Positions 7,110 to 34,269 of a stretch of DNA of 64,000 nucleotides are shown here, piece by piece. Source of the stretch: a virus (lineage: Duplodnaviria; Caudoviricetes). Every line of letters begins with the position of its first letter. The first letter of the stretch is position 1. The position numbers and the translations under genes are program-made. The stretch covers positions 1 to 64,000 of IMG/VR virus record IMGVR_UViG_3300025084_000011, one strand, 5' to 3'. The notes under the pieces were generated by a model. It made no database searches, was not told the origin of the DNA, and worked only from the letters and a program-made list of their open reading frames with translations.

Positions 7110-7259
7110 ATGGCAAAGAGATCAACGACAGGACTTGCTGGTGGTAACTTTATTCCATCACAACCTAAAACAACCCGTCAGGGAGCATCACAAAACACTA
7201 AACTTAGCGCAACATCACGAAATGGTAAGCAAAAGAGGTACAGAGGTCAAGGAAGGTAA
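7110..7259 (+). CDS. Small basic protein ending KRYRGQGR (49 aa)
   Basis: Read manually; AGGAG RBS at 7101-7105. The YRGQG C-terminus is typical of a small ORF between PAAR and gp25 in T4-like phages (from memory). Confidence 0.7.
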   Translation: MAKRSTTGLAGGNFIPSQPKTTRQGASQNTKLSATSRNGKQKRYRGQGR

Positions 7260-7437
7260 GGTAGTCACCACTCCTGAACTCGTCAAGGAATCAAATGTGG
7301 CACTGTATCGTGCCACAATGAACCTTCCACACGCTGCCAAACATTGTGGAATGACAGAACGGGAGATGAAAATGACATTTAGGGAGTTTTTGAAATATAA
7401 TCCTCCCGTTGAACCTATAAATAAACAAGAACACTGA
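7222..7437 (+). CDS. Hypothetical protein, possibly HTH-like (NLPHAAKHCGMTEREMK); start uncertain
   Basis: Same frame as track ORF 7135..7437, whose 5' part overlaps the 7110 gene. Confidence 0.6.
   Translation: MVSKRGTEVKEGKVVTTPELVKESNVALYRATMNLPHAAKHCGMTEREMKMTFREFLKYNPPVEPINKQEH
7416..7423 (+). promoter_or_regulatory. T4-type late promoter TATAAATA
   Basis: Exact consensus about 30 nt upstream of gp25. Confidence 0.75.
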
Positions 7438-7451
7438 TATAAATCAGAAAA

Positions 7452-7865
7452 TTGGCACGTTATCGGTTCCGATCTGAACAATTCCTGTCCCGAGGGTACA
7501 AAGATTTCTCTGTATCCTTCAATATGAATCCGAATACGGAAGATTTTGGGTCAGTTACGAATGAAAATGCTATTAAGCAGTCAGTTCGGAATCTTATCAT
7601 GACACAATTTGGAGAGAGACCCTTTCAAATGGAGATTGGGTCCCGCGTTACAGGTCTTTTGTTTGAACCGTTCGACGTTTTCTCAGCAGAAGACCTGAAA
7701 GACGAAATTAGAAATACCATTGAGAGACTGGAACCTCGTGTGACAGTCGAATCAGTGGATGTGATTCTCTCAGAAAGTGAAGATGCTCTTGATGTGAGCA
7801 TAGAGTATCGCATCGTTGGTGAAGAACTTGTTCAAACTATCGAATTTCTATTAGAACGCACCTAA
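7452..7865 (+). CDS. gp25: Baseplate wedge subunit gp25
   Basis: YKDFSVSF..NP, NENAIKQSVRNLI.T..GERPF and IERLEPRV motifs; TTG start; upstream of gp6. Confidence 0.92.
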   Translation: MARYRFRSEQFLSRGYKDFSVSFNMNPNTEDFGSVTNENAIKQSVRNLIMTQFGERPFQMEIGSRVTGLLFEPFDVFSAEDLKDEIRNTIERLEPRVTVESVDVILSESEDALDVSIEYRIVGEELVQTIEFLLERT

Positions 7866-7866
7866 A

Positions 7867-10209: not shown

Positions 10210-10216
10210 GAGATAA

Positions 10217-22200: not shown

Positions 22201-25200
22201 TCAATTCCTTGGTCTGACTTCTGGTGCAAGAGGTGAAGTTGTCAGAATTGACTATGAGGCATCACCACCTATCCTGTACTACCTCAGAAAGACTGAGCAG
22301 AACTTTAACTTAGATCCTAATACTATTGATCCTACTGATGGTGATCAGACAGCAGTTTCTGAAACTGTACAAAAGTATGAAAATGATGTTAATGGTAATG
22401 AAGTTTTAGATTCCTTAACTGAGACTCTTCTTGGAGAAGCAAGGATTGGTGATGTGGTTGACACTCTGGTCATTAACAGAGGTTCTACATTCTTCGGTAT
22501 GATCTTCGAGCGTTTGATCTCTCTGACTAATCAGAACCAAATCCTTGATGATGTTTCTAAGACTACTATCACCCCTGTTGAAATTCTTGACAGTTCTGAT
22601 CGTATTAACGCTGACTTCCTTGACTTTGAAGAAGTTCGTTCTACTGAAATCGAATATGAAGATCTCACTGGCGGCACATTAGCAGTTGGCGATAAACTTC
22701 GTTCTATCCAAGTAACATATGGCAACCCAGTAACAGATTCCCTCAACAGATGGAAAGATGCTGGTCGTATGATCGAGTTCAACAGACAGGAGATCGTTGA
22801 CTTTGCTAATGCTGAGATTTCTGTTGAGCACCCTGCGTTCTACTATCCTGGTGACAACCAGACAGATCAGTTCAGCAGATTTGCAGATTCTTATCGTCTG
22901 ATTGCTAAGAACAAAGAATACATCATCGCTAAGTCTTATGCAGACATGGTTGTTGAGTATCCTCTTCTGACCATACCTTCTTCTACCAAGTGTAAGAGAG
23001 ATATTGGTAAGTATATTGACGCACTATCCATGGACATGTTCCAAGGTGGTACTGTTTATACACGTAAACTTCTCCAATCCTATTTCAGTACAGATGGTCT
23101 GACCTTCCTGTATATTGACGGTGAAGAGCAAGCAACTGAATATGCGTTTGAGCAAGCACTCAACTATATGAAGGATGCTCTCACTAACATGCTCACAGGT
23201 AGTGAGGTTGTTGATGGTGTAACTTATGTCAAGTATGACGAGAGATCTAGTGGTGGATCTAGTGGCACTGGTATCACTGCTGACCCATCACCTGGTAATA
23301 ATTATGGTACTGCTGGTTCCAATGCTATAAACTATGGTGCTACAAATTGTTCTGATGTGCAGTCAGCACTCACAACTCTCTTTACTAACGTATCCGAAGT
23401 TCTGCTTGCAGGTTCACTATCTGATCTGATCGATCTGTCAGAACCCAATACATACAGTGCAAACGAGACTAAGTGTCGTCGTGACATCGGTCTGATGGTC
23501 GATGCTCTCGCTGCTGATATTGCAGGTGATGGTAACTATCAGATTGTCGAATTTACTAAGAAATACTTCGATAACGCTGGAACACCTATCAGCAATGGTC
23601 TGGTTGGTGAAGTTGCTGAATCTCTTACTGCATTCAGAAAAGCAGGCGAAATGTGCCGTAAGGCAATCAACAACCTTCTCTATGTTCAGGTCAATACCAG
23701 AACTGCTGAGACTGGTTATATGCTGAAAGATCCGACCACATATGCTGGTCCATATCTTGGTTCTTCGGGAACTGAACTGACTGAGTTTGATGTATCTAAT
23801 GCTGCCTATGTGTCTGGCAGTGGCATCATGACGTTGACGATCGGTTCACACTCACTGACAACCAGCGACAGCATTACGATCAGACCTTACTCTTTACGTT
23901 TCACATGTAGTTCTGATAGTAATGCAACCTTCCACGATTACCCACGTACTGGCGATCCTGCATTCAATACACCCCTGACTATCGATGCTGTAACTGCTAC
24001 AACCATTGAAGTTAACGTTGGTGCATCACCTGCTGGACAACAGTACGCTCACACCTTCATCAGTGCTATCGATAACGCTGTATTCCAAGGTGGCGGTGGT
24101 GCTGCTGCATACTACGATCCTAACTACTACTCTGGTAGAAACGAAAGTATCCAACATTGTGCTGACGTTCAGGCAGGTATCCATACTCTGGTCGAACTGG
24201 CAGCAACTGCTATCGGCGCTGGTAGTCTCACTAGCATCAACAGTCTGGCAGTTGTCAGTGATGGTTCTTATCAGATCAACGAAAACCTACGTGTTTACAA
24301 ACTATCCTACAAAGATCCTGGTGGAAATGGATTCTTCATCCCTGGTGATGTAATCAAAGGTGCAACATCTGGTGCAACATTCTTAGCGAAGGGTGCAAAC
24401 TCTGGTTTGAAGTGGTTGTATACCAATTCAGTTACTGGCACTTTCCAAGACAGAGAGATTCTTTCTAACACCAAATTGACTAGCAGCAATGCAGTCTTGA
24501 CTGGGTTGATTAAGAAGTCTGGTTCTAAGTCTTTGAGACTTGATGCTGGTGGTTATCTGTCACATGAACTGAGCGAAGTTCAGAAGTTTGGAACTGATGA
24601 TTTTACAATCGAGATGTGGATCAGACCTACAACTCTGTCTGGTTTGCAGTATCTCTGGGATACTCGCACCAGTGGTGCTGCTGAGGTTGGATCTCCTGTT
24701 CTATATCTGAATGGTAGTAACATCTCTTGGTACCTGAACGGTAGTGATCAAATCTCAGGTGCTCACAACTTAGGCACTGACGCTTGGCATCATATTGCTG
24801 TCAGCAGAACAACAAACATCACCAAACTTTGGGTGAATGGTACACAAGTTGGCGGCGACTTCACTGATAACACTAACTATCTGGAACGTGCATTCAAGAT
24901 CGGTGCTGACTTAACAAATGCTAATGGATTTGTCGGTTGGATTGACAACATCATTATTAAGAAGGGTGTTTCAGACTATACTGCAACCTTTACACCTGGT
25001 TCTACCTATCCTACTACTACTAATGACATCTCGTTCGGTATGAGTATGGAACTGCCTCTGATCATGAGTGATCAGGAAAGATATGGCGTGTATACTGGTC
25101 AAACTAACTCTTCTGCAACTGCTAAGAGTATTGACTTTGATAATAAGCAGTTCATCATTGAAGATATTAACCTCGCACGCGATGAGCATCGTAAGTGTGC

Positions 25201-28200
25201 AGATCTTATCGAACTTAACTACGACTGGATCGCACAGGTTGCTATCGGTTTGATGAAGGAGAAGTATTCCGACTTCCTCATCCCTGGCGATACTCTTGAT
25301 GGAGTTGGAACACAGCAAGGTACTAACAAGTGCTTGCGTGACACCAAAGAATACATCTTGAAAGCAATCGTAGAAGACATTAAGTATGGTGGTAACTATA
25401 ACAGCGTCATCGCTGGTAGAGGTTATCTGACTAAGGATGGTGGTCTAAATTATGTGGGTAATGAACTCCTACAATCTATCTACACTTGGACAGAACTTGC
25501 TAATGTTGTTAATTATGTAATTACTACTACTAGTGGTGATCTTGAAACCTATAACGGTACTAAGTATACTGAACTTCTTCGGATTCCTAACAACTTTACA
25601 TCACCTGCATCTACCGCTGTAACTGACGAGATCACTGCTCTTTCTAATACTATTGCAGATATCATCGGACCTACTGGTGATAGATTCCGTGATGCAGGCG
25701 ATATGATCTGGAAGAACCGTAGTTACATTGCAGAAGAAACTGTTGGTTACTTGCAGGCAAACTACATTAAGGAAATCAATGGCACTACTTACGATTTCCT
25801 GACAATGCCTGGTTATGGCGACTCCTACTGTGAGCGCGATATCAAGCAACACATTCTGCCTGCTGTTGTTACTGACTTGATCACTGGTGGCAACTCTGCT
25901 ACCCAGTATGTGATTGATCAGTACATCAATGTCAACGATCAGATCATTCACATTGAGAATGAACTTGGTCCAATGTTGGATGCCTTCACCTTCATTAAGA
26001 AGTTGGTACATCATGCAGTTAACAACACTCTTCTAAGCAAGGGTACGACTGCTGCTGAGTTCAGTGTTGATTTTGAATATCAAGATGATTACTATATTGC
26101 ACAATGGACCGATCTTCCTGCATACAAAGATAACACTCTAATCATTGATAGTAAGGGTTATGAAGGTGGTAACAGTTCTGATGTCAACAAGAATCTTGAT
26201 GTTGCTGATCTGATTGAAGCAAACAAGCATGTAATCGCAAGAGAAGCGGTTTACACGATGAACGATATGTCCAAGTATTTGGATCTTGCCGTTCCTGGTG
26301 GTGCTCAAAATTGTATTGATGATGTGATTGACGTTCTTGATGCTGTGATCCATGACATGAGATTCGGTGGCAACTCCAAGACTTGGGACGCTGCTGCACT
26401 CTACCTGAATGAAGAAGATGACAGTTTGAAGCACATCGAAGGTGAAGTTGACGCTTCGATCGATGTATATAAGATTGCTGCTGAGATCTGCATCCTAACG
26501 ATGCGTAATGGTTTCGGTCGCGACAACCTGTATATCTACCAAGAAGATGGTGGTGTGGATCCTGTCACTGGTCAACCAATCAGTGGCGGTTCTTCTCTCG
26601 ATTCTGTTGATGTCAGCACTTATGAAAGAAATGGTGCTGATGACCGTTTCGTTGATGCTGGAAATGTCATTGATAGAAACATCCGCTTGATTGCTGAGGA
26701 AGCAGTTGCACAGGGTCTTGCCCAATATCCTTCACTAACTATCAACGGATCTGGTGGCAGTGGTGGTGTCAAGAAAACTCCTACTTCTGCAACATATAAC
26801 CAGGCAAATGGTGATATGACACTGACAGTTGTTGGTCATGGACTTTCTACTTCTGATAGAGTAACCATCAAACCTGGTAGCATCGTCTTCACATGTACCA
26901 GTAATGCTAACGCTACTGAACATGCATACCCAAGACAAAGCGACCCCGCGTATAACACATCATTAGCCATTAGTGCTGCTACAACGGACACATTCACCGT
27001 GAACGTTGGCGCTGCTGCTGCTGAGTACCAATATGCACACACATTCGTTTCTGCTCAGCAAGACGCTGTGGTGACTAACGGTTACATTGACTGTGTTCAT
27101 GACGTGACTGACGTTCTGTCTGCCATGGTATGGAACTTGAAGTATGGTGGTAACAATAAGGTCTTCAAGTCTGCTGAACTGTATGTCTCTGGTAGTAACC
27201 TACAACATATCGTAGGTGTTTCTACTGAGTCTATCTGGATTCTGAACAAAGCAAGAGATCTTGCAATTCAGGCAATGAGAGATGAGACCATCACGATCAC
27301 TGCTGCTCATGGATTCTCTCAGAAGACATACACAGATCTAGATTACTTCCCTTACAGCGAGGGTGGTTATGCGATCACAGTCGATACTGACTCACCTAAG
27401 TGTGCAGACGTTGCTTCGGCAATCACCTCTATGATGTCGATTGTTACTGACACAATCACTACGCCTGCAAGTATCGAAGACGGTACAATCACTAAGACTC
27501 TGCCATTCATCTGGCCTGTCAAGTATTCACCCGAATATGTCCAACGTGACGTGTCGGTTACGTATGAAGATGGTTCAGATTGGAATCAAGTTTGTGCTAC
27601 TCAGGCAACAAATATTGAGACTTTGTTCGATATTGTTATCGATACAATCAGCACAGCAAATGCTGGTAATGCAAGTTACCTCAATGGTGTTACTCGTGAT
27701 ACAGGATACAATGCCAACACAGATTATCAGTATTACACATGCTACAACGTCACCTCAGCATCTGACACTCTCTTTGAGTTGATGGAAGAGACACTTGGTG
27801 GTGGTAGTAAGTCTGATAAGGCAGTTGCACGTCGCATCTTGTGGAACAAGCACGCAGTTTCCCTGAAAGCATTCTCCGAAGTTCAAACAGCATATCCAGC
27901 AACTCTTGCCGAACAGTCGTTTGGTGATGCATTGCTTGATGGTCTGCTTTATGACCTGAATACTGGTGGTAACATCGGTATCCTGAGAATCGTGAATACT
28001 TGGTTTGATGGTGAGGGCAACTTCATCGCATTCCCCGATGTCACTAAGCAACATCTTCTCTGGTATGTAACTCGCATCAGTGAGTATGCCAAGCGTATTC
28101 TGGATGACTACAATGACAACCTGGTTGGTGGTGAGTGGTATGGATATGACATCTACTTAGATGAGACTCATATCAACACTGGCGCTATCGAGCATAGATT

Positions 28201-31141
28201 TGAATATGAGCAAGAATCTACTCAGTTTAAGATTGATAGTTCTCTCAATGCTGCATACTTTGCTATCAGCAGAGGTACACCTCCTGCACAAAACAGTGTT
28301 CAGTGGACCAATAATGTTCATGCTAATAATGCACAGAATCTATATGACGAAGGTAATGATTGGAACACTGATCCTGATCTGATCATCAACACACCTACTG
28401 TTGAAGTTGGTTTTGAAAGAAGAGAGAACAGAATTATTATTCAACGTCCTAACTTCTACTCACGCGGTGATATTCTGCAATATGCAATTGCATCTGCTGA
28501 TGTTGAATCTGCTTTCGCTAATCAAGATTACTTCTATGTTCTCAATGCAACACCAACGCAATTTGAGATCACAAGAGAAATCAGACATGATGCAAGATTC
28601 TCTCGCTTCGCAGTTGACACAAGAACTTCTGGGCAGCAGCAACTGCAAAGTCCCGTAAGATCTGGTCTTGTACGTCAATCAACTACATACGGCACAAGAG
28701 ATATCGACAACCCTGTCAGTGGTGGTTTTAACCTCGCAGACGTGGTTGTGGGCACTACATCTACTGCAAGTTCTGAGATTGTTCGGAACAAGAATAACTC
28801 TGCTGACATCATCAAACTGTATTACAGGTACACCATCAGACTTGCCACTGGCAGGTTCACAGTTGGTGAGCAAGTACAAGTTCAAGGTGGTGGTGCCAAC
28901 AACGGTATCGTCATGCAGACCTCAGTCCTCACGGGCGATAATGAGGATGAAGGTTGGGTGTACATCGAGAATATCACGGGTACGCTTAGCAGCACTCAGG
29001 TGCTCGAAGGTGTGGACAGTGGAATCACAGCAGAACTCAGCAGTGACGGCACAACTCGCATGTTGATCAATACTGATCGTGGTGGGTTTACTAACGGTGA
29101 GATTATCTTCAACAAAGATAACGGCGCTGAGGCAACCATTGTTTCCTTCGAGAACTCTGCTGGTATCTTGACTGGTAACAGCGGTGGTCGTATCACGATC
29201 GATATCGAAACTCTGCAAGATGACTTCACTGACGGTGACATCATTTACGGTTCTATCACTGACAAGATTCTTGACATTGGTAAGATCAGCAAAGAAGGAT
29301 TCAGAGACATTGAACTTAATCAGTTCGTACACGCGGTTAAGACGATCGAGTGTGATGTCAACAGCGTCCTGAGAGATCAAGGTTTCGAGGGTGACTTCAA
29401 GAGAGGTGATATTGTTTATCTCCTTTCAGGTGGTGTACCTAAGGTTCCTGGTTGGACTGCTCTCGTTACAGATTATGTGTACGAGGAAGGCGTTCAGCAT
29501 AAGATCTGGATCGCGAACTTGACACCATTTGGCGCTGCTGCTGATGGCACTACAACCACAGATCCTCAGGAACTAATAGGCGGTGGATTAGGTAGATTTG
29601 AAAACCTCAATAACTTCCCAATCATCTCCTGTGATATTACTACGGTTACTGAGACCAACTACACGTCCTACGGTAAGGTTTCTGGCAAGTCAATTAGTGG
29701 CGATACAGGTCGCCTATGGTTGGAAGATGTTAATGGTGATTTCCCATCAAACTTGACAATCAGATCCGACTATGGATGGTCTGCTGGTGTTACCCAAGCG
29801 AAGAATCTCTTGGGTCGCTGCGATAGGTTCTTCCGTGGATTCGATGGCATTGCTGATACCTTCAAACTGACGGTTAGCAATGGTGAAGCATACTTCCCAG
29901 ATCCCGCTGGTCACCTACTCGTCTTTGTTAATGGTGTTATGCAACCTCCTGGTGCTAACTTCGCATACACTGCATTCTCTGACCAGATCACGTTCACTGA
30001 ACCACCTACCATTGGATCTGAATTCATTGGTTACTACGTGGGTAAACTGAGACAACTGGATGATATCTCGTTTGAGTTTGACTCCTTGCGCTCGTCCTTC
30101 AACCTGAAATATCAGGGTGGATTCTACTCACTGACGCTGACTGAGGGCGTTTCGTCTAACACGATTCTTCCAGAAAACAACATCATCGTCTCGCTCAATG
30201 GTGTTATTCAGGAAGCAGGTATTGGTTATGAACTGGTTGGTTCTAGAATCATCTTCGCTGAGATTCCTCGTGCAGGATCGACATTCGTTGCCTTCTCTTA
30301 CATCGGTTCCGACGCTGACGTTATCGCAGCAACTGTCGTGCCACCGATCGAAGCAGGCGATGTTCTACAAATCGAAGGTGAAGCAGACGAACGTGAAGTT
30401 GCTCTGATTGAGTCTTCCAACTCACTGATCACCTTCGAGTACACAGGCACAGTTAAGGGTCGTGGTGCTACCGCTCTTGCATCAATCAAGTCTGGTGAAA
30501 TCACTAAGGCAATTATCACCGCACCTGGTGATGGTTACTCCTCGCGCCCGAACGTGGATGTGGTTTCCTCCACTGGTTTTGACGGTCGTGTTCGTGCCCT
30601 AATGGGTCTATTGAGAATTGATGTCAAGACTCCTGGTATTGATTATCAGCAACCAATTGTTGATGTTCAGACTACCGTCGAAGATGATTTTGTTGCTCCT
30701 AGTGGACCTGCTGTTAACCAAGGTTTCGACACCTACGCTGGTGAGGGCACTGACGCTCAGGGCAACCCAATCGTCATCATCCCTGGTTATATCAACGTCG
30801 CATCACAACCTGTGAACGTGACAGTGAACCAAGGTCAGACTGCATCCTTCACCATTGTCGCTCAGTTCATCAACAGTTCTGACAATCAGATTGGATCTAC
30901 TGCTCTGAACTATCAGTGGCAGCGTAAGCAGTATGGCGAAACTAACTGGTCGAACATCACTGGTTCTACCAGTGCCACATACACATCATTGACTGCCGAA
31001 CAAGCAGATGATGGTGATGAGTTCCGTGTTGCAGTTACTGCTGCTGGTGCTACACCAATCTACTCCAACTCTGTGATCCTCACAGTACAGACTGGTGCAA
31101 CTGTTGTTAACAACTTCAACCCGACTCAGATTTTTCAATAA
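10217..31141 (+). CDS. gp7: Giant baseplate wedge initiator gp7 / multidomain virion protein (6974 aa)
   Basis: N-terminus ISDRVANQLPEFI and KIKDFYLSKGT motifs, and position between gp6 and gp8. Contains many GxGYxxxP repeats, a YHYH-like segment, a beta-propeller-like region, two LamG-like domains, two CBM5/12-like repeats, helical repeats and a C-terminal Ig-like domain. Confidence 0.88.
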   Translation: MFAKTINISDRVANQLPEFIRNEDEQLVNFLIEYYKSQEKTGRPYNVLNNLIKYLDLDEYDQKILTSSTSLIKEVGIYDEVIEVEQIDGFLPSKGSVMIDNEIIYYDETVRGPDAILTPGISLEEFNKKRQALESPWELFDGARTTFPLKFLGTPVSAVSADHLAVTIYGDLLIPQVDYTVSGSEITLTVPPRARTGNDQVELTQILYYVGFADSVIKDLVIPDVNDLVGLDSTTMEYDSLPYSPIAEIGLIINRNAVLQRPYLDYVLTDNNTKIKFFVNISNQDTFHIRSIEYVSPTVGSGASAVTRVGASGEIDKIIIKDGGKGYQLNFAPKLSIYSSTGVGEASAGRTLVNGIKDSQLIRGGQGYTSYNPPVLKITPPSDLINGSQATAEITVDDDTGMVSSIEITNSGSGYDFIPAITFLNPDGAEISSPEIDSEGRLVPASIAVTQGGIGYSNPPEIYIDAAPDGGINAAATCTVAPNGQIVSVTITNRGRGYLTPPRARVIQPVGAQVLDITVANGNVTNINLLTGGKGYLDAPSVYIVDDRKGPLNEPIGGTGAEAVATIFNGEITDINIVNFGTGYSDTEPPKVYIASPASAQASCDVGFGEVTGFTILSAGRKYEPSALTGCARGVSDVATFDNYANQIYAKESQLTQSSHPAESVVNNLDSMIIKQVFDKFRRQYMPTINLDYSQVNPVLVIKKIKDFYLSKGTKKATQYLFKILFGEEIDVYYPRDEMITPSAASWVVDTILRAELISGDPANLKDSQLVQIADEVDQNIKDASVLIENVISIIEGTDIIYELAISEETLNGEFKIPYKTVLVEPLDTTGGIITVDSTIGWPEKNGTIIIDDNEIVQYKDKSLNQFIECTRSKNGVVEDWDPGTIIHSDIFVYANRGQETEVQLRILGIAEAGTTVLEDSGSYYLPGDKLNVAALGSTDQDERLQSWLYNVKKLIKVSQIIPGGLNRTATVTCENPHGLLVEDTVTIYGANPAVYNGTFEVTARLDDFTFSYLIPVPTAIEPQGNILLSVDLNRGKSTQSTINEVISLFTSNVQNSFFNNDFVYVAASGLPNYKVGPFSGSALIPGNQRKLLRFPRTVNTVSTRTTVLPNTPIGAWVNGVSAWGYKDQEFVTFGPLTGIDITNTGEEYDAGSTPTLEITGGGGSGAVASVIVNGSLSTVDVLTQGTGYTTQPLISIVGGGGSGATAQAVVTNGRVTRVLVGNPGTGYTSQPTISITGGGGSGATAIAQVRGAISGVNILSRGTGYTSTPTLKLNSGEGALAQPIVINGRIVSVAIINSGDGYTTAPTVYINGDGFGAKATAVIGTLGEDKGKVISVSITNKGVGYTQGNTTVRMEAVGQLATFNANVFQWNKNLEYNLSTKYDIARGYVFTGFNNQYGGEYAHVSDPKELRYVVGDNVILDPETNTFKEEGTETGAAISHSPILGWAFDGNPIYGPYGYIDPTDQNGGIRRMRSSYRLKTNVVYDVDTNPEPARIDGPVLADYPAGQFVDDYEYAFQEGDLDPYNGRFCKTPDYPDGTYCYFITIDASEAGLPVFPYIIGPEFNSIVDTWNLSQSAVQENIPQDVSRFRDPYEEVDIDIERQPNQQSDQLVTEKEGDLILFETSDIDNDGIISPAEIATNLVMTEEAALQIYDYFPRVSTESRVDIEVETTTKFENAQIDGFVIENSGVSYQVNDTLFFDNTGTDGFGASAQVESVQGASIAAYSKEVINDIPYGKITTSTDHELIGQDEIIVSSRVITENTNKRFYMSVVTGIDSILVSQTGIGYNEAIPPSYEIITPSGQDVELDIVLDLTTGKVDTVNIVNSGFNYDTENTPQIRVSHPQRFKKTYYWSTSFAESADCKFEITDSVVSAERNLYICGQITKPNGDSAAFVAKFNDLGNVVWDRTLLPSSAIKVARWKKMYLDETSEENDLIYLIGETESQGTANRNPDILVAKYESGLDNANNPEGIVRWQKEIAGVSGSTRRDYAGDIYLDADQRVYICGWTDTNSPDPDDIWIIQLNSFGDLIEKRKFASDSEGEQMYQLHFIGDNKLVFAGIDKDNNDLLFGEMEYDGANIEFTYVKRLAISGGDVQNPQFVLDEYDDLFFVCDMWNGTKNYGVAFFKIAMSQIKLVVASPEWQFAKIMAPTVQFESVKHAGITLDIFGNVNVVTEIKYEDNNLTANIASFKYDGTLLNQSDVWKTANDIGFTTHTHAVDNSGDIILSCNTQNADQTIVHRFENADNLVEDSTKQEIPTITVLNAANAAHDTTDYKFGSGSLDFTALNRIQWEDLNITTDWTVGMWVQMDSAHDSSNATVEMITAVADTGGTVRFTIEGNSGLANYGKVALQLTPAGAATTTVWSVGSTYWAALSDNTWHHIAFVKEEPSLGSYVYSCYFDGVIVATTTTTENIVLNDLYVGAEVASPATANCFIGNIDDLIVDPKAVYTTASFTLPTERYRITSADSSIELIKFDRLHSKRGTYTPTSATRSGENLRIEDIDSGTAGINVNTISNPVITIWSVGSSGLQILDYSDVTSTLAPGTFNFVTDRFTYETKTSTIPTPLGRKLILDPIVLPKYYIRDAGYQKIDAVKEFTFNQDIKFEKGSIIQQTNAQGVVQAFGTIVEVPVGSIDDPGVGTTYKVGKIYGNFNNTDLFQNDLGETNTIEEISFEVSRPQTAWEAGKAYAVNDQVWSDDKIYYATNNATSGVTEPTHTIGAVTDGAVVWQFISDAPNIEVNLLDYPWPVPTDATPWAETRSYQLDDTVYFGRNKYTCTVAGTTGTTAPTHTSGTATDNSVTWTYTSTYDPLYNYARFRPTNVLDYRVTILNTFSGSDFIVGDVVSLGNSVNAGPKEDTNNKIAEVSGLSSVKTIRVTVNLNKDIVRTSEANTDLIYCSALSPHNFKTNDILFVEGFTTAEFNGSFFVKEVFSSRDFTYRMRAIATGEPAFQQNAIARVKIASKHPTLLLVRNHSYIFDMSDISNFGYYLSFAQDNQFKLEYSFNVIEREGTPGLSSATETPVVKFTIGGEVTNITYYFDPSRTTDTSPVGENSFIDVIKTPFDGRFQISEVISDTEFRFPLLTEPEFTNAEIGLNDRDVPNTIYSTTSTKAIGPINSIRLISPGGFYKKLPIISDIASDRKIEKLRITAAGTEYAPGVYTQISIDGDGEGALCNITVELDAETGSGAISDVALTDPGKGYTFATIDIDGIPGILGATLAGSGGAIEVVIPDEGTGAAVFLTGTQIGKIKTLKNNEFGYGYSHDYTLRPEIAFPINLQLFNTSILSQIKITNPGAGYTSAPAVLISGGGGVNAEAEAVVKNNRLSEILIKNPGSGYSSQPIVTLKSEFTYVVNLDLNYLQFNFPHGITTGAEVQFRADNIGSTEGILPKPSSVGLTSLSASQTYYAIAGDANGLESDQLRFGLTPVDAESGNFITFLTQGDGRQVLLTEVFGGQAEAVVETSRFLEGEQVFQGETFETATAFGIVSENDGWQIQPKILKVTNPDGDFVVGGKVQGIISRASGVIDNLNIAKGVLNIDAITKTAGRFTDDVGKPSEIVQKIQDSFFYQNFSYVIKSQIPINKWKNQILENNHPVGFSMFGQLELTGGKDISGRKVAADFTKQVNINEYTNVNEITSFGAAQPIYSTFNNSEVLFRKKRLTNSEEILTSIVKKIDSISSQFDGVTKAFPITVEGNQVIVNENQLLVTLNGVIQSPGNAYNVVGGSIVFSEAPRPDSKVVYRNISFDIMPITRLNLNTIAGIFPSIGDTVNGFTTQTTARVVATGATSIDVVDIGSGTGTFDLNERVDVGRTGFSALIGSIDKSFTKLFLQSIGGTFGTILIGDIVTGQTTGARATVTSIDLTDQSIQVTDMSNGYFDRGEDIQFFAAGYGANILNVDSVNYKTIFEFGESLTGLDNDTAIVEETNLDLDGNVSDKLVLSKTSGTAEYETGAYNLLLNDIFYSASSNIAGRITQISPYRDPITSINIERPSTVTGEWASFQEGDQFLGLTSGARGEVVRIDYEASPPILYYLRKTEQNFNLDPNTIDPTDGDQTAVSETVQKYENDVNGNEVLDSLTETLLGEARIGDVVDTLVINRGSTFFGMIFERLISLTNQNQILDDVSKTTITPVEILDSSDRINADFLDFEEVRSTEIEYEDLTGGTLAVGDKLRSIQVTYGNPVTDSLNRWKDAGRMIEFNRQEIVDFANAEISVEHPAFYYPGDNQTDQFSRFADSYRLIAKNKEYIIAKSYADMVVEYPLLTIPSSTKCKRDIGKYIDALSMDMFQGGTVYTRKLLQSYFSTDGLTFLYIDGEEQATEYAFEQALNYMKDALTNMLTGSEVVDGVTYVKYDERSSGGSSGTGITADPSPGNNYGTAGSNAINYGATNCSDVQSALTTLFTNVSEVLLAGSLSDLIDLSEPNTYSANETKCRRDIGLMVDALAADIAGDGNYQIVEFTKKYFDNAGTPISNGLVGEVAESLTAFRKAGEMCRKAINNLLYVQVNTRTAETGYMLKDPTTYAGPYLGSSGTELTEFDVSNAAYVSGSGIMTLTIGSHSLTTSDSITIRPYSLRFTCSSDSNATFHDYPRTGDPAFNTPLTIDAVTATTIEVNVGASPAGQQYAHTFISAIDNAVFQGGGGAAAYYDPNYYSGRNESIQHCADVQAGIHTLVELAATAIGAGSLTSINSLAVVSDGSYQINENLRVYKLSYKDPGGNGFFIPGDVIKGATSGATFLAKGANSGLKWLYTNSVTGTFQDREILSNTKLTSSNAVLTGLIKKSGSKSLRLDAGGYLSHELSEVQKFGTDDFTIEMWIRPTTLSGLQYLWDTRTSGAAEVGSPVLYLNGSNISWYLNGSDQISGAHNLGTDAWHHIAVSRTTNITKLWVNGTQVGGDFTDNTNYLERAFKIGADLTNANGFVGWIDNIIIKKGVSDYTATFTPGSTYPTTTNDISFGMSMELPLIMSDQERYGVYTGQTNSSATAKSIDFDNKQFIIEDINLARDEHRKCADLIELNYDWIAQVAIGLMKEKYSDFLIPGDTLDGVGTQQGTNKCLRDTKEYILKAIVEDIKYGGNYNSVIAGRGYLTKDGGLNYVGNELLQSIYTWTELANVVNYVITTTSGDLETYNGTKYTELLRIPNNFTSPASTAVTDEITALSNTIADIIGPTGDRFRDAGDMIWKNRSYIAEETVGYLQANYIKEINGTTYDFLTMPGYGDSYCERDIKQHILPAVVTDLITGGNSATQYVIDQYINVNDQIIHIENELGPMLDAFTFIKKLVHHAVNNTLLSKGTTAAEFSVDFEYQDDYYIAQWTDLPAYKDNTLIIDSKGYEGGNSSDVNKNLDVADLIEANKHVIAREAVYTMNDMSKYLDLAVPGGAQNCIDDVIDVLDAVIHDMRFGGNSKTWDAAALYLNEEDDSLKHIEGEVDASIDVYKIAAEICILTMRNGFGRDNLYIYQEDGGVDPVTGQPISGGSSLDSVDVSTYERNGADDRFVDAGNVIDRNIRLIAEEAVAQGLAQYPSLTINGSGGSGGVKKTPTSATYNQANGDMTLTVVGHGLSTSDRVTIKPGSIVFTCTSNANATEHAYPRQSDPAYNTSLAISAATTDTFTVNVGAAAAEYQYAHTFVSAQQDAVVTNGYIDCVHDVTDVLSAMVWNLKYGGNNKVFKSAELYVSGSNLQHIVGVSTESIWILNKARDLAIQAMRDETITITAAHGFSQKTYTDLDYFPYSEGGYAITVDTDSPKCADVASAITSMMSIVTDTITTPASIEDGTITKTLPFIWPVKYSPEYVQRDVSVTYEDGSDWNQVCATQATNIETLFDIVIDTISTANAGNASYLNGVTRDTGYNANTDYQYYTCYNVTSASDTLFELMEETLGGGSKSDKAVARRILWNKHAVSLKAFSEVQTAYPATLAEQSFGDALLDGLLYDLNTGGNIGILRIVNTWFDGEGNFIAFPDVTKQHLLWYVTRISEYAKRILDDYNDNLVGGEWYGYDIYLDETHINTGAIEHRFEYEQESTQFKIDSSLNAAYFAISRGTPPAQNSVQWTNNVHANNAQNLYDEGNDWNTDPDLIINTPTVEVGFERRENRIIIQRPNFYSRGDILQYAIASADVESAFANQDYFYVLNATPTQFEITREIRHDARFSRFAVDTRTSGQQQLQSPVRSGLVRQSTTYGTRDIDNPVSGGFNLADVVVGTTSTASSEIVRNKNNSADIIKLYYRYTIRLATGRFTVGEQVQVQGGGANNGIVMQTSVLTGDNEDEGWVYIENITGTLSSTQVLEGVDSGITAELSSDGTTRMLINTDRGGFTNGEIIFNKDNGAEATIVSFENSAGILTGNSGGRITIDIETLQDDFTDGDIIYGSITDKILDIGKISKEGFRDIELNQFVHAVKTIECDVNSVLRDQGFEGDFKRGDIVYLLSGGVPKVPGWTALVTDYVYEEGVQHKIWIANLTPFGAAADGTTTTDPQELIGGGLGRFENLNNFPIISCDITTVTETNYTSYGKVSGKSISGDTGRLWLEDVNGDFPSNLTIRSDYGWSAGVTQAKNLLGRCDRFFRGFDGIADTFKLTVSNGEAYFPDPAGHLLVFVNGVMQPPGANFAYTAFSDQITFTEPPTIGSEFIGYYVGKLRQLDDISFEFDSLRSSFNLKYQGGFYSLTLTEGVSSNTILPENNIIVSLNGVIQEAGIGYELVGSRIIFAEIPRAGSTFVAFSYIGSDADVIAATVVPPIEAGDVLQIEGEADEREVALIESSNSLITFEYTGTVKGRGATALASIKSGEITKAIITAPGDGYSSRPNVDVVSSTGFDGRVRALMGLLRIDVKTPGIDYQQPIVDVQTTVEDDFVAPSGPAVNQGFDTYAGEGTDAQGNPIVIIPGYINVASQPVNVTVNQGQTASFTIVAQFINSSDNQIGSTALNYQWQRKQYGETNWSNITGSTSATYTSLTAEQADDGDEFRVAVTAAGATPIYSNSVILTVQTGATVVNNFNPTQIFQ
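22748..28270 (+). repeat. About seven phycobiliprotein-like helical repeat units inside gp7
   Basis: Recurring R-F-x-D-A-x3-I-x2-N-x3-I-x3-A-x8-P, C-x-R/D/H-D-x14/15-GG and C-x2-V-x3-I/L-x2-L-F motifs. Confidence 0.7.
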
Positions 31142-31144
31142 ATA
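31137..31144 (+). promoter_or_regulatory. Late promoter AATAAATA
   Basis: Overlaps the gp7 stop, upstream of 31158. Confidence 0.65.
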
Positions 31145-31157
31145 GATAAAAAGCACA

Positions 31158-32762
31158 ATGACAGCAACCGCTGAATTTAACGCTGGCACTAGGATAATTA
31201 CCGTAGATGCGGATGGGTTACCAACCCCCGTAGAATACGGTACATTTCCTAATGTAAATAATCCGAATAGCGTCACTGAGCAAGCATTTGATCATGACTT
31301 CTATTATAGAGGTGGCACCTTTGGTGTAACTAGACAATTGGATTCCAATGTCTATGTACATGAAGGGTTTTTTATTAGTGTTGCATTGTCAGTTGCTGAT
31401 AACTCTTTATTGGGTAATCAGATTCAAGTTGGTGACAGAATTCTTTTTCTGTTTGATGAAGGCACACCAGAAGAAGAGAAGTTAGTATTTACATATAGAG
31501 GGACAGAACAAACTGCAATCCCTGGTGAATTTTGGAGAGAGACTGATCAGAATTTACAACTGGTCATGGAGTATACAGCGACTGGTCGTTCTGGTACATA
31601 TAGTTATTATGATCAAAGAAATGGCAGGGTCAATACACCCTTAGGTGCTATTGGTATTGCTGCTAATGGAGTAGTTTTCTTCAATCCTTCTGCTGGTGCT
31701 GGCGGAAACCCACCAGTTAATTTCAGTTGGAATGCACACTTCCCAAGTTCACCAGTAACATTTGGTGAAGACAGTTGTGGTGGTCATCCAGAAAACACTG
31801 GTCAGTATCACTATCATGATACTGAGTTTTTGGAGTGTTGGAAGAATGGTGCCGCCATGGCATCTTACAATGATTACTATGGTTCTTCTCAGTATAATGG
31901 TGACAATCTAAGACACCCAGATGGGCATTCTAAAATCTTAGGATATGCATTTGATGGATTTCCTATCTACGGTCCATACCTTTATAGTAATAGTTGGAAT
32001 GTTAATTCTAATGTCACAACTGCTACCAGTTCGTATCGTGTCAGATCAGAAGAGGTAGAAAACAGACCAATATATGGTGACTCTCAGCAGAACCCCCCTG
32101 CTGGATCCTTGATGGAAGATTGGGAATATGCAGAAGGTCTGGGTAATTTAGATAGACATAATGGTAGATTTTGCATCACTCCTGAATTTCAGAGTGGTAC
32201 ATATGCATATTTCTTATCTACTGAGGTAGATAGTGAGAACAATCTACAACCAGTATTCCCATATCTTATGGGTCTAACTTCTCGTGAACTTATAGATCAA
32301 CCACCAAACAATGGCGCTGCAACACCTCCTGCACCTCCTACTGGTGGTGGTGAGGAAGCACCTCCTGCTGTCATTCAAATTGCTTTGCAACCTGCAAATG
32401 CAACTTATAATGTCAATCAGACTGTCACATTCTCGATCACTGCTGCCATCAGTCCAGAAGATGGACCTAAGGCATATCAGTGGTTTAGATCTACTGATGG
32501 TGGATTCTCGTTTGCTGTGTTGACTGGTGCAACTAATTCAACATATACATTTACAGCATTGAACTACATGTCTGGATATAAATTCAGATGTGAAGTACGT
32601 GGTCCTTTGGGTCTAGGTGTGACCCCTGCACAAAACTCACCTCTAACGTCAGACGTTGCAACTCTGACTGTGACTGGTTTCGGTGATGGTCAAGGTGATG
32701 CCGACTTCTCATCTACGGATGCTAAGTTCAGCACTACCAGCATCTCCTTCGACGCAACATAA
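31158..32762 (+). CDS. YHYH-domain virion protein with a C-terminal Ig-like domain
   Basis: IGIAANGVVFFNP, GGHP..GQYHYH, GHSKILGYAFDGFPIYGPY and LDRHNGRF motifs; Ig-like segment LQPANAT...YQWFRS...YKFRCEV. Confidence 0.85.
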   Translation: MTATAEFNAGTRIITVDADGLPTPVEYGTFPNVNNPNSVTEQAFDHDFYYRGGTFGVTRQLDSNVYVHEGFFISVALSVADNSLLGNQIQVGDRILFLFDEGTPEEEKLVFTYRGTEQTAIPGEFWRETDQNLQLVMEYTATGRSGTYSYYDQRNGRVNTPLGAIGIAANGVVFFNPSAGAGGNPPVNFSWNAHFPSSPVTFGEDSCGGHPENTGQYHYHDTEFLECWKNGAAMASYNDYYGSSQYNGDNLRHPDGHSKILGYAFDGFPIYGPYLYSNSWNVNSNVTTATSSYRVRSEEVENRPIYGDSQQNPPAGSLMEDWEYAEGLGNLDRHNGRFCITPEFQSGTYAYFLSTEVDSENNLQPVFPYLMGLTSRELIDQPPNNGAATPPAPPTGGGEEAPPAVIQIALQPANATYNVNQTVTFSITAAISPEDGPKAYQWFRSTDGGFSFAVLTGATNSTYTFTALNYMSGYKFRCEVRGPLGLGVTPAQNSPLTSDVATLTVTGFGDGQGDADFSSTDAKFSTTSISFDAT

Positions 32763-32765
32763 ATA
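32758..32765 (+). promoter_or_regulatory. Late promoter CATAAATA
   Basis: Overlaps the stop of the YHYH gene, upstream of 32788. Confidence 0.65.
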
Positions 32766-32787
32766 GAATTGTAAAAAAAGAACGATC

Positions 32788-34269
32788 ATGGCAAAACAGC
32801 TAGTCGGTATTGGATCTTCGGCAAATGATGGTACAGGTGATACCCTAAGAGACGGTGCTATTAAATATAATGCCAACTTTGAAGAACTTTATGACAAACT
32901 TGGTAACGCTACGGATATCCAACTAGATATCGGTTCTGCTACTGATGGCCAAGTGCTTAAATGGAGTTCAACACCGAGTGGTGCATTCCGTGCTGGCAAC
33001 TTTGACACGTTAACTGGTAATCTAGATACCAACGGTTTCGATATTGTAACCGATGGTACTGATAATATTATTCTAAAACACACTGGAACAGGTGACATCC
33101 AGTTCTGGGGTGGCGGATCTGGATCCGCTTATACTTATATCGATGGTGACGATGGATACCTCAAATGGTACGCTCCTTACGCTACTCTGGGCGACCTTCC
33201 TGATGCGACTAACCATCATGGTATGTTTGCTCACGTTCACAGTTCTGGCAAGGGATACTTTGCCCATGCTGCTGCTTGGATTCCCCTTGTAGACGAGAAC
33301 CAAAGTATTACCGTCCTTGCCGACGTTGATACTACTGTTAATGGTGGTCCCTCTGATGGGCAAGTCCTGAAATGGAATGATGCTAACAGTGCCTGGGAAC
33401 CTGCTAACGATGAGCAGGGTACTGGTGGTTCTGGTGGTTCAACTCAGAACTTGTTTGAATCTGTTGATGCTGATACTGGATCTTCAACTGCTTCTGCTCC
33501 TAACGATACTCTCGTTATTGCAGGTGGTACTAACATTTCCACAACTATGGTTGGTGATACACTGACCATTGATATGACAGGCACCTTGGGTGACCTAAAC
33601 CAGAATGTGTTTACAACATTCGGTGCTGATAATGGAACTGTTAGTGCCACGGTAGTTACTGACTCACTGACATTTACAGGTGGTAGTGGAATTAGCACTA
33701 ATTTGAATGCTGGGGCAATTACATTCACTAACGACTCTCCTAACGTCGTCCAGGACGCTCTGAAAGGGGTTGCAGGTGACACTGGTACATATACTGCAAC
33801 TGCTGCTGATTCTTCTATCACCATTGCTGGTGGCACTGGAATCACTACTGCTGTATCTGGATCAACAGTAACGATCACCAACACGGTGGCATTGCCTAGT
33901 GCAAACGAAGGTCAGTCATTGATCTATGGCACATCTAACTATGAAGCAGTAGCATCTCCTACTCTTAACTTTGCATTTAGTGCTTCTGATAGTAACAACT
34001 ATACTGTCAATGGACCTGGTATCGATGGACTCACCGATGCCACCATTTATGTGTATCGTGGATTTACTTACAGATTTGACAACACAACTGGTGCTAGTCA
34101 CCCATTAGAACTCAGAGTATCTGATGGTGGTTCACAGATTGGTGGAACATCTGGATCTATCAATAGTGTCCAATATTGGACAGTTCCAATGGCTCTTGCT
34201 GCTGGTACAACTTATGTGTATCAGTGTAATATTCATGGCAATATGAAAGGTAACATCGTAGTCGTCTAA
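32788..34269 (+). CDS. Baseplate/tail-fibre connector-like protein (gp9/gp10-type N-terminus) with a C-terminal cupredoxin-like domain
   Basis: GIGSSANDGTGDTLRDGAIKYNANFEELY at the N-terminus; SHPLELR...YVYQCNIHGNMKGNIVV at the C-terminus. Confidence 0.8.
   Translation: MAKQLVGIGSSANDGTGDTLRDGAIKYNANFEELYDKLGNATDIQLDIGSATDGQVLKWSSTPSGAFRAGNFDTLTGNLDTNGFDIVTDGTDNIILKHTGTGDIQFWGGGSGSAYTYIDGDDGYLKWYAPYATLGDLPDATNHHGMFAHVHSSGKGYFAHAAAWIPLVDENQSITVLADVDTTVNGGPSDGQVLKWNDANSAWEPANDEQGTGGSGGSTQNLFESVDADTGSSTASAPNDTLVIAGGTNISTTMVGDTLTIDMTGTLGDLNQNVFTTFGADNGTVSATVVTDSLTFTGGSGISTNLNAGAITFTNDSPNVVQDALKGVAGDTGTYTATAADSSITIAGGTGITTAVSGSTVTITNTVALPSANEGQSLIYGTSNYEAVASPTLNFAFSASDSNNYTVNGPGIDGLTDATIYVYRGFTYRFDNTTGASHPLELRVSDGGSQIGGTSGSINSVQYWTVPMALAAGTTYVYQCNIHGNMKGNIVVV

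Follow-up and report, generated by a model that had tools for sequence, protein, structure and literature searches.

In phycobiliproteins (PBPs), the arginine of the bilin site is the propionate partner. The only site that T-type lyases are known to serve in these proteins is beta-153/155, and ApcE, a component of the phycobilisome core, binds its bilin covalently without a lyase. CpeT (PF06206), which phages encode, belongs to this T-type family, whose target is the beta-153/155 cysteine, and we know of no established physiological substrate for the phage enzyme. In T4, the baseplate protein gp7 is ~1030 aa long and present in six copies per particle. Adsorption requires light in phages P-HM1, P-HM2 and S-PM2 but not in P-SSM2 or the podovirus P-SSP7, which can adsorb in darkness (PMC6628666).

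The DNA analyzed here, a window of 64,000 nucleotides, comes from an S-WAM1-like T4-type cyanophage with a marine cyanobacterial host. It encodes a gp7-type protein whose helical units are almost certainly true PBP homologues, both in sequence and in predicted fold. A literature search found no paper on this PBP-like module in cyanophage virion proteins.

A gp7-type protein with seven helical units

The gp7-type baseplate wedge protein (10217..31141, + strand; 6974 aa) carries all of the PBP-like units. Its gene is preceded by gp6 (7867-10209; PF21379, PF21871, PF21387), and gp8 (36151-37686; PF09215) lies downstream, beyond another three ORFs. The N-terminus matches the PHROG baseplate wedge families phrog_2885, phrog_708 and phrog_719, and the S-WAM1 orthologue is annotated as 'baseplate wedge initiator'; the Pfam Baseplate_wedge match is weak (20.5 bits against a cut-off of 27). 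Both the gp6–gp7 gene order and the similarity to wedge subunits are present.

The first-pass annotation placed YHYH metal-motif proteins and a fibre with an intact cupredoxin ligand set in the same cluster. The YHYH domain was recovered twice, in a virion structural protein (31158..32762, + strand; PF14240, E 9.4e-37; phrog_25852) and within gp7 itself at aa 1397-1548 (PF14240, E 2e-29). The fibre is a gp9/gp10-like baseplate-fibre connector (32788..34269, + strand; PF07880, E 8e-8; phrog_677), and the ligand letters are there: H...C-x2-H-x2-M falls within the C-terminal ~110 aa, with SHP and CNIHGNM in the last 60 residues. However, no cupredoxin match was obtained for this ORF in Pfam (E<=1), PDB sequences (E<=10) or the ESM Atlas, which leaves the cupredoxin reading without search support.

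Seven paralogous helical units of ~110 aa each were delimited in gp7 by an iterated HMM (E 1e-18 to 1e-33), and all features described below lie on the + strand. An extra A/B-like helix pair (aa 4175-4204; 22739..22828) stands before unit 1, where it matches unit positions 1-40 of the HMM in part and corresponds to helices 11-24 and 26-40 of the AF2 model. The core of unit 1 (aa 4220-4327; 22874..23197; HMM E 1.7e-33) comprises helices A, B, E, F and G and holds Cys4259 in KCKRDIG (codon 22991). A helix N-capped by Cys4378 (NCSDV; 23348..23410) superposes as helix H of unit 1, although sequence HMMs assign it to unit 2 as its first helix. The E to G helices of unit 2 (aa 4415-4490; 23459..23686; HMM E 5.6e-28; model helices 251-273, 277-284 and 302-320) contain Cys4420 in KCRRDIG (codon 23474). 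Ahead of the closing helix of this unit, a beta-sandwich domain is inserted (aa 4521-4625; 23777..24091; AF2 strands 357-461), which bears Cys4564 in FTC and resembles the E1 FCCH domain and the phi92 endosialidase barrel at VIA Z ~7. The helix N-capped by Cys4648 (HCADV; 24158..24220; model helix 485-504) is, from the model, the likely equivalent of helix H in unit 2.

A Laminin-G/ConA-like domain (24569..24952; PF13385, E 1.7e-13) separates units 2 and 3. Unit 3 (aa 4989-5105; 25181..25531; HMM E 1.9e-30) has Cys5039 in CLRD (codon 25331), unit 4 (aa 5155-5274; 25679..26038; E 1.4e-33) has Cys5205 in CERD (codon 25829), and unit 5 (aa 5325-5431; 26189..26509; E 2.6e-33) has Cys5366 in CIDD (codon 26312). 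Unit 6 (26642..27295) is split by a second beta-sandwich insert at ~aa 5520-5610 into A/B helices (aa 5476-5512; E 9e-7) and an E-G core (aa 5611-5693; E 1.6e-22) with Cys5626 in CVHD (codon 27092). Three more Cys-capped helices, with Cys5729 (KCADV), Cys5793 and Cys5842 (27401..27796), supply the remaining H-type cysteines recognized from sequence. Unit 7 (aa 5867-5964; 27815..28108; E 2.6e-18) belongs to the same fold family, with the bilin-site motif lost and E-Q-S-F in place of C-x-R-D.

Homology to phycobiliproteins

Pfam PF00502 matched gp7 aa 4201-6974 with 26.8 bits (cut-off 22.2), and unit 1 alone scored 20.7 bits (E 4.4e-4), slightly below the cut-off; the other units, searched singly, gave no match to PF00502. 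The same family is precomputed on many orthologues, including gp7 of S-WAM1 and S-SZBM1. A profile built from 71 diverse units returned 114 matches at E<=1 among PDB sequences, and every one of the best 60 was a PBP, the lowest E being 5.9e-5. The alignment pairs profile positions 2-66 with PBP residues 35-104 and places the unit cysteine on Cys84, with KC.RDIG common to both. In the phage collection, units occurred in cyanophage records only.

Structure prediction gave a concordant picture. The AF2 model of unit 1 as a single unit has a pLDDT of 92.6, and the Foldseek matches listed for it (ranks 1-47) were all PBPs or PBP-type engineered or designed fluorescent proteins, with a probability of 0.99-1.00. 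Alignment with VIA against 48,161 chains likewise put PBPs at the top (Z 10.6-12.6), the value of 12.6 belonging to an allophycocyanin-type chain. When the following helix was included (model residues 50-233), the alignment to phycoerythrin beta residues 26-184 rose to Z 15.3 over 147 aligned residues, and helix 215-234 superposed within it. The predicted fold of the units is the globin type seen in PBPs, built from helices A, B, E, F/F', G and H. Judged by helix order and motif, with the HMM alignment covering the B-E region, the cysteine at the start of helix H may correspond to the beta-153/155 cysteine. The X-Y hairpin that would precede the units is absent, and all sequence and structure alignments begin at PBP residue 26-50. 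Because this dimerization hairpin is missing, the units are PBP-derived domains and not antenna subunits.

Conservation of the bilin-site residues

The attachment-site cysteines reported by the first-pass annotation were all located. The pattern C-x-[RDH]-D has exactly six matches in gp7, four of them C-x-R-D, one C-x-D-D and one C-x-H-D, and five H-type cysteines (aa 4378, 4648, 5729, 5793 and 5842) each open an amphipathic helix. Conservation of these 11 site cysteines across ~100 homologues lies at 68-100% and is at least 98% for nine of them; the exceptions are E6 (82%) and H6 (68%). Among the E-type cysteines, Cys4420 is kept in 86/87 homologues, Cys5039 in 76/77, Cys5205 in 82/82, Cys5366 in 82/83 (with Arg replaced by Asp, as C-x-D-D, in orthologues too) and Cys5626 in 63/77, mainly as CVHD. 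Among the H-type cysteines, the counts are 85/86 for Cys4378, 72/73 for Cys4648, 34/50 for Cys5729, 70/71 for Cys5793 and 69/70 for Cys5842. Cysteines 4480 and 5425, which lie outside the sites, are retained by only 9-20% of homologues. Among 71 units sharing no more than 60% identity, the columns reaching 90% invariance or more are C41, D44, G60, N61, Y71 and N106, and in a set of 829 units the occupied positions hold Cys in 91% and Asp in 94% of cases. The equivalents of Cys84, Arg86 and Asp87 are near-invariant, as is the second Cys, which opens the putative helix H. By these alignments, the residues of the canonical bilin site, Lys-Cys-x-Arg-Asp-Ile-Gly, are the best-conserved feature of the units.

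We tentatively propose that the PBP-derived domains of gp7 carry bilin, so that the baseplate and some fibres would be biliproteins; the proposal is a serious one, held at slightly less than even confidence. Whether bilin is really bound in virions appears finely balanced, with at most a slight lean against it. A different origin for the conservation is a substantial possibility, although not a probable one: a captured host PBP gene may have been multiplied as a rigid helical block in long baseplate and fibre proteins, with no pigment in the virion and with the conserved Cys, Asp and Arg used in folding, inter-domain contacts, post-lysis disulfides or metal binding. The units do stand among other structural modules (LamG, YHYH and beta-sandwich inserts) in giant proteins of 3000-7900 aa that each have up to 35 unit matches, the X-Y hairpin and the context of phycobilisome assembly are missing, unit 7 retains the fold without the motif, and the literature searched held no report of colored or fluorescent cyanophage particles. 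Moreover, the beta-insert cysteines, which have no PBP counterpart, are equally conserved (Cys4564 is kept in 60/62 homologues), so the conserved cysteines of gp7 may have another cause. Conversely, purely structural use would not lead one to expect the strongest conservation to fall precisely on the PBP bilin contacts K-C-x-R-D-I-G in a domain that has otherwise diverged to ~15-20% identity. In addition, each E helix has essentially a single conserved Cys, and the region has 13 conserved cysteines in all, an odd number. Independent loss of the cysteines E6 and H6 in 17/50 homologues argues against an obligate Cys pair.

Association of the units with CpeT

A further point that pigment-free modules leave unexplained is the co-occurrence and synteny of the units with cpeT and with a heme oxygenase (HO)-cpeT pair. 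Among 23 cyanomyovirus genomes, 18 have both units and CpeT, three have neither (P-SSM2, S-SM2 and S-SSM7), two have units only and none has CpeT only. A one-sided Fisher test gives p 0.006 for the 23 genomes and p 0.015 for 17 isolates not picked for units, but cpeT and units are each nearly universal in this phage family, and the three genomes with neither may be one clade, in which case as few as one or two evolutionary events could underlie the association. Units without CpeT above threshold were found in the myoviruses S-ShM2 and P-SSM7 and in the siphovirus S-SKS1. In S-PM2, S-RSM4, Syn1 and three uncultured genomes (G001-G003), a giant fibre gene with units has cpeT 1-4 kb upstream on the same strand. 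In another uncultured lineage, the order is HO and cpeT as overlapping genes, three small ORFs and the gene for a 22-unit protein.

The first-pass annotation had suggested that the phage bilin pathway (ho1, pebS, pcyA) could load gp7, and had listed as a check whether cpeT and pebS co-occur with the repeats across genomes. In the genomes compared, cpeT tracks the units; in isolates, heme oxygenase and bilin reductase do not. P-SSM2 has heme oxygenase and bilin reductase and lacks units, whereas S-PM2, S-RSM4, Syn9 and S-WAM1 have units and neither enzyme. As a general source of pigment for the units, the phage pathway is therefore not supported, the HO-cpeT pair near the 22-unit gene being the exception. 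The observation that no bilin genes lie nearby extends beyond the window: cpeT, heme oxygenase and bilin reductase are all absent from the record as a whole (83.5 kb, with a completeness of only 45%).

In the pigmented-baseplate proposal, gp7 units would receive bilin (PEB or PCB) from the host pool late in infection, or bilin made by the phage itself where the phage has the genes, and the bilin would be joined to the site cysteines by thioether. Phage CpeT would load the helix-H cysteines. The Cys84-type sites would need another lyase; they could be loaded by host S-type lyases or autocatalytically as in ApcE. With the units loaded, the assembled baseplate and some tail fibres would be biliproteins.

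The bilin-site conservation and the cpeT linkage would fit equally well with a sink inside the infected cell, in which the domains bind bilin freed when phage NblA and stress dismantle phycobilisomes, or rival the host antenna proteins as lyase substrates, and any particle pigment is a by-product. The many sites per protein (up to 35 units among the matches listed) fit such a role, as does the report that many cyanophages encode the antenna-degrading NblA (10.1101/2024.11.10.622831). We nevertheless consider a sink improbable. Every unit found sits in a virion tail or baseplate protein, and such late, low-copy products would make a poor stoichiometric sink; among the best 150 matches there is no free-standing soluble form, all being at least 730 aa. 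Very improbable is a metal-binding or redox-sensing role, instead of bilin, for Cys-x-(Arg/Asp/His)-Asp together with the YHYH domains and the fibre H...C-x2-H-x2-M: the YHYH domains are genuine, the swap of Arg for Asp or His in units 5 and 6 is kept among orthologues and ORF 32788-34269 has the ligand-like motif, but Cys and Asp on successive helical turns form no known metal site, most units retain Arg, the fibre C-terminus matches no cupredoxin or other metal domain, and the lyase linkage is left unexplained.

Light-dependent adsorption

More speculatively, the most likely use of a bilin bound to the units would be to bias the conformation of the baseplate or fibres in response to light, and this would account for the light-dependent adsorption of many cyanomyoviruses. 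Across five phages, the unit profile correlates with light dependence: it matched five times in P-HM1, five times in P-HM2 and 12 times in S-PM2, and gave no match in P-SSM2 or P-SSP7. Even so, light-gated adsorption through bound bilin is unlikely, if far from negligible. The same doubt attaches to the fullest form of the proposal, in which the particles of most T4-like cyanophages would be biliproteins through the PBP-derived domains of gp7 and giant tail fibres, acquire their bilins through their own CpeT and use them as a virion photoreceptor gating adsorption or baseplate triggering. If true, it would describe the first light-sensing virus particle and supply both a substrate for phage CpeT and a mechanism for light-dependent cyanophage adsorption. 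The tracking of units and cpeT across genomes makes virion pigment and light sensing testable now.

Comparison with known systems

The closest relatives of the units are the PBP alpha and beta subunits (PF00502: CpcA/B, CpeA/B, ApcA/B), with which they share the globin-type fold from A to H (Z 10.6-15.3), the motif K-C-x-R-D-I-G and probably, as in beta subunits, a second Cys opening helix H. They differ in their ~15-20% identity, in the splitting of some units by inserted beta-sandwich domains and in their setting, as cores of ~110-130 aa inside virion proteins of ~700-7900 aa (up to 35 per protein among the matches listed). Without the X-Y hairpin, no assembly into alpha-beta monomers, trimers or rods is expected. 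The bilin domain of ApcE (PDB 4xxi), the second-best structural match (Z 13.0, rmsd 2.0, 117 aligned), is likewise a PBP domain within a large multidomain protein, broken by an inserted loop, and its lyase-free attachment is a precedent for autocatalytic loading of embedded PBP domains. ApcE, however, belongs to the phycobilisome core and has a single PBP domain with its Cys at another position, whereas the phage units occur in tandem, end up outside the cell in the finished product and retain Cys84 at its classical place. Photocobilins (B12 and biliverdin photoreceptors; PDB 8j2w, 8j2y) also have a PBP-like globin domain outside the antenna that binds bilin and senses light (Z 9.5-10.6), but they come from non-photosynthetic bacteria, are joined to a B12 domain and are not the nearest relatives of the phage units by sequence. 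CpeT is a proposed partner of the units and not a relative. The cyanophage gp7, like that of T4, follows gp6 in a wedge block that also holds gp8, and has N-terminal similarity to wedge subunits; it is ~7x longer than T4 gp7, which has no counterpart of its PBP-like units or of its LamG, YHYH and beta-insert modules.

Gp7 and Its Neighboring Genes

The baseplate and tail-fiber block of a T4-like cyanomyovirus is encoded in the window, which covers the initial 64 kb of a virus fragment in IMG/VR (83.5 kb in all; estimated completeness 45%). Its genes include gp6 (7867–10209), gp7 (10217–31141; 6974 aa), a YHYH-domain virion protein (31158–32762; PF14240), a gp9/10-like connector (32788–34269), and gp8 (36151–37686). 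The nearest isolate is Synechococcus phage S-WAM1, which shares 64–73% amino-acid identity across the baseplate region and in which the collinear gene (6737 aa) bears the annotation "baseplate wedge initiator," a name for gp7. In gp6, a small Cys-rich insert (aa 516–562; window 9412–9552) matches DUF7107, EB, and Dickkopf-like modules. After gp8 lie two further giant ORFs, 37690–45120 (2476 aa) and 45670–52587 (2305 aa), which correspond in S-WAM1 to genes labeled baseplate wedge tail fiber connector and YadA-domain structural protein.

Gp7 itself carries at least two LamG-like domains (aa 2288–2438 and 4785–4912) and a YHYH domain (PF14240; aa 1397–1548, window 14405–14860). PF14240 is present twice over, within gp7 and in the next gene, in agreement with the first-pass annotation, which had placed YHYH proteins in this cluster. 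A cupredoxin ligand set had also been noted in a fiber of the cluster. The ligand motif is present in the ORF at 32788–34269, but searches lent a cupredoxin zero support, with no cupredoxin match for this ORF in Pfam, PDB phmmer, or ESM Atlas.

Repeat Units and Cysteine Motifs

Gp7 contains six copies of the motif C-x-[RDH]-D, whose Cys (E1–E6) are aa 4259, 4420, 5039, 5205, 5366, and 5626 (codons at window 22991, 23474, 25331, 25829, 26312, and 27092). They comprise four C-x-R-D, a single CIDD, and a single CVHD, an exact match to the six E-helix Cys reported at first pass. All fall within paralogous units of ~110 aa. The five H-helix Cys reported with them are located at aa 4378, 4648, 5729, 5793, and 5842, and each opens an amphipathic helix. 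An iterated HMM search of gp7 recovered seven full units (E 1e-18 to 1e-33) and two detached N-terminal helix pairs; in unit 7 (aa 5867–5964) the bilin-site motif has been lost. Two beta-sandwich inserts of ~100 aa are found inside units 2 and 6 (window 23777–24091 and about 26774–27046); in VIA-align, their fold scores Z about 7 against two similar structures, the E1 first-catalytic-cysteine half-domain and the phi92 endosialidase barrel.

Homology to Phycobiliproteins

On the C-terminal 2774 aa of gp7, PF00502 scores 26.8 bits against a curated cut-off of 22.2, and unit 1 alone matches it at E 4.4e-4 over profile positions 33–136. The search for homologues yielded 103 giant proteins, and for the majority of these the same family is precomputed. 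A profile of the seven paralogues had 47 matches among all PDB sequences, 44 of them phycobiliproteins (PBPs). A larger profile, built from 71 units drawn from the window and IMG/VR loci and clustered at 60% identity, had 114 PDB matches at E<=1, of which the best 60 are all phycobiliproteins (top E 5.9e-5). Its register is constant: profile positions 2–66 align with PBP residues 35–104, the unit Cys falls on Cys84, and K-C-x-R-D-I-G is common to both. With a profile of the unit 1–unit 2 module, the PDB alignment is confined to the B–E region, and the comparison of the helix-H Cys with beta-155 falls outside it.

The predicted fold points to the same family. An AlphaFold model of a single unit (pLDDT 92.6, pTM 0.85) retrieved only phycobiliproteins or PBP-type engineered or designed fluorescent proteins at the listed Foldseek ranks 1–47, with probabilities of 0.99–1.00 and query TM-scores of 0.51–0.77 but E-values of merely 0.03–0.1. 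VIA-align, which is independent of Foldseek and was run on 48,161 chains, ranked chains of allophycocyanin, ApcE, phycoerythrin, and phycocyanin highest (Z 10.6–12.6, rmsd 2.2–2.7, 96–107 of 114 residues), followed by the bilin-binding photocobilins (Z 9.5–10.6) and, lower still, by ordinary globins and globin-coupled sensor domains (Z 8 or below). A 526-aa model of units 1–2, made from 72 orthologues (pLDDT 75.9, pTM 0.77), aligns through residues 50–233 with phycoerythrin beta (Z 15.3, 147 residues) and also matches the ApcE bilin domain (Z 13.0). Foldseek with this whole model found no PBP and nothing below E 1e-3, a result that we regard as a multi-domain artifact because PBPs did emerge with the single-unit model and with VIA-align.

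The modeled range 50–233 contains the helix initiated by Cys4378, which suggests that this helix serves as helix H of unit 1. The first-pass label "H-helix" is thus structurally reasonable for Cys4378, whereas sequence HMMs assign the same helix to unit 2 as its first.

Conservation of the Putative Bilin Sites

The 71 units are 18–45% identical to unit 1, and six of their columns are invariant (>=90%): C41, D44, G60, N61, Y71, and N106. The 103 giant proteins yielded 829 units, in which Cys accounts for 91% of the occupied positions and Asp for 94%; at the middle motif position, Arg makes up 52%, Asp 15%, and His 8% of all 829 rows. Replacement of this Arg is inherited and unit-specific, with C-x-D-D for unit 5 and C-V-H-D for unit 6. 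In about 100 homologues, E1–E5 and Cys4378, 4648, 5793, and 5842 are kept in 98–100%; the figures are lower for E6 (82%) and for Cys5729 (68%). Other Cys of the units are much less kept (4480 in 9%, 5425 in 20%, and 4994 in 51%). Two findings stand firmly: the units are homologous to PBPs, and their bilin-site residues have been selectively retained.

The main rival to pigment binding is that the units form an apo structural module whose Cys are retained for other reasons. The pattern of retention singles out the putative bilin-site Cys among the Cys of the units, with the caveat that the single "FTC" Cys of the beta-insert, which has no PBP counterpart, is conserved too (aa 4564 in 60/62 and aa 5560 in 64/70 homologues). 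In 17 of 50 homologues, E6 and Cys5729 have been lost independently of each other, which weakens the case for an obligate disulfide between E-helix and H-helix Cys.

Distribution of the Units

A tblastn search with units 3–5 matched 351 phage records, every one of which bears the name of a Synechococcus, Prochlorococcus, cyano-, or marine phage, including gp7 of P-HM2 and a tail-fiber protein of siphovirus S-SKS1; megablast of the gp7 unit region against the phage collection had given no match. The family is large: among 1.84 billion proteins, the unit profile hits 1540 clusters (50% identity), and 1111 of these reach E<=1e-10. The best 150 of these 1540 are all giant repeat proteins, and some proteins have up to 35 stretches that match the profile. 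Three proteins of 6200–6650 aa (P0100, P0103, and P0105) consist almost wholly of tandem PBP-like units, with 34–36 each (36 in P0100).

Two unit-bearing fragments (P0173 and P0274) come from contigs of 2–5.5 kb deposited as a "Candidatus Nanopelagicaceae bacterium" MAG. Either phage DNA was mis-binned here, or the module extends beyond cyanophages; against the latter, all 351 matches in the phage collection are cyanophages or marine phages, and a lineage with 22 units carries psbA.

Association with cpeT and Bilin-Synthesis Genes

The absence of bilin-synthesis and cpeT genes, noted earlier for the window, extends to the entire 83.5-kb record, itself a fragment, in which no CpeT, bilin reductase, or heme oxygenase gene was found. 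Whole genomes of 23 cyanomyoviruses were therefore searched: 17 were isolates chosen regardless of units (early isolates and the NC_015279–NC_015290 series) and 6 were picked through unit-bearing matches. Units and CpeT (PF06206) are both present in 18 of the 23, and neither is present in 3 (P-SSM2, S-SM2, and S-SSM7). Units occur without CpeT in two genomes (S-ShM2 and P-SSM7), each with sub-threshold CpeT candidates, and CpeT occurs without units in none of the 23. One-sided Fisher tests, with phylogeny not corrected for, give p = 190/33649 = 0.006 for all 23 genomes and p = 91/6188 = 0.015 for the 17 unselected isolates. Because the double-negatives may be a single clade and phylogeny is uncorrected, the co-occurrence amounts to suggestive, not strong, evidence.

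Heme oxygenase and ferredoxin-dependent bilin reductase show no such correspondence with the units. P-SSM2 has both genes and no units; conversely, both genes are absent from the unit-bearing S-PM2, S-RSM4, Syn9, S-WAM1, and S-SZBM1. The idea that phage bilin-synthesis genes serve the units thus fails as a general rule.

Gene order also links cpeT to the units. Canonical full-length CpeT (E about 1e-35 to 1e-43) is always encoded a short way upstream of a giant gene that has the same orientation, bears units, and is annotated "short tail fiber protein." This is the case in S-PM2 (cpeT 163952–164479, giant gene 165928–177267), S-RSM4 (176523–177047 and 162121–175569, both on the minus strand), Syn1 (CpeT 19950–20462, units from 21720), and the uncultured genome G003. 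Two other uncultured genomes, G001 and G002, have divergent CpeT-like genes (E 1e-5 to 1e-15) in the equivalent position, and in these two and S-PM2 a 2OG-Fe(II) oxygenase gene (PF13640) lies between cpeT and the giant gene. The conserved cluster, seen in S-PM2 (L182; 163952–177267) and at the G001–G003 loci (L184, L185, and L187), reads gp5-like gene, small ORFs, cpeT, 2OG-Fe(II) oxygenase, giant PBP-repeat "short tail fiber" gene, and gp12. In S-WAM1-like phages, including that of the window, the CpeT-like gene is distant from gp7. The S-PM2 RefSeq record (NC_006820) places 15 tRNA features with one locus tag at 168556–173383, inside the 11-kb "short tail fiber" CDS, which looks like an annotation coordinate error rather than biology.

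Another arrangement is found in the 22-unit lineage, where a heme oxygenase–CpeT gene pair lies inside the tail-fiber cluster, upstream of the 22-unit protein. In its contig L199, heme oxygenase (19–720) overlaps CpeT (713–1231) by 8 nt, and three small ORFs (one LtfC-like, two unknown) separate CpeT from a giant protein of 2925 aa with 22 PBP-like units (3001–11778; PF00502 42.9 bits). Contigs of this lineage carry heme oxygenase and CpeT in 6/6, bilin reductase in 5/6, and psbA in 1/6.

Light-Dependent Adsorption

Many cyanomyoviruses adsorb only in the light, without a need for host photosynthesis (PMC6628666). For instance, P-HM1 and P-HM2 do not adsorb in darkness, and adsorption of S-PM2 is light-dependent and photosynthesis-independent, whereas P-SSM2 and the podovirus P-SSP7 adsorb in darkness (PMC6628666). 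The unit profile has 5, 5, and 12 matches in the light-dependent P-HM1, P-HM2, and S-PM2, respectively, and zero in the dark adsorbers P-SSM2 and P-SSP7. With five phages, this association is no more than a lead.

Interpretation and Significance

The most economical reading of the sequence evidence would be that the sites are used: the units would bind bilin, CpeT would be at least one of their lyases, and baseplate and fibers would be biliproteins. The most attractive use of such pigment would be an adsorption role responsive to light. No report of pigmented cyanophage particles and no paper describing PBP-like phage domains were found among the papers searched.

Why so many cyanomyoviruses carry a phycobiliprotein lyase (cpeT), whose substrate is to our knowledge not established, has been a question for more than a decade. 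Why many of them adsorb solely in light has been a second question for as long. PBP-derived domains that have intact bilin sites, lie within the adsorption machinery, are genetically linked to cpeT, and are absent from the tested dark adsorbers therefore offer one concrete answer to both. If pigment is bound, the units would put the phycobiliprotein fold to a new use and add a novel kind of function to the virion, and the modeling of diel infection rhythms in the ocean's main phototrophs would be affected. If it is not, they are still a clear case in which an antenna protein of the host was captured and multiplied to build the virion.

Antenna subunits have an X-Y hairpin, whereas the gp7 units lack it, and units 2 and 6 are each broken by a beta-sandwich insert. 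As modeled, the units are PBP-derived domains rather than antenna subunits.
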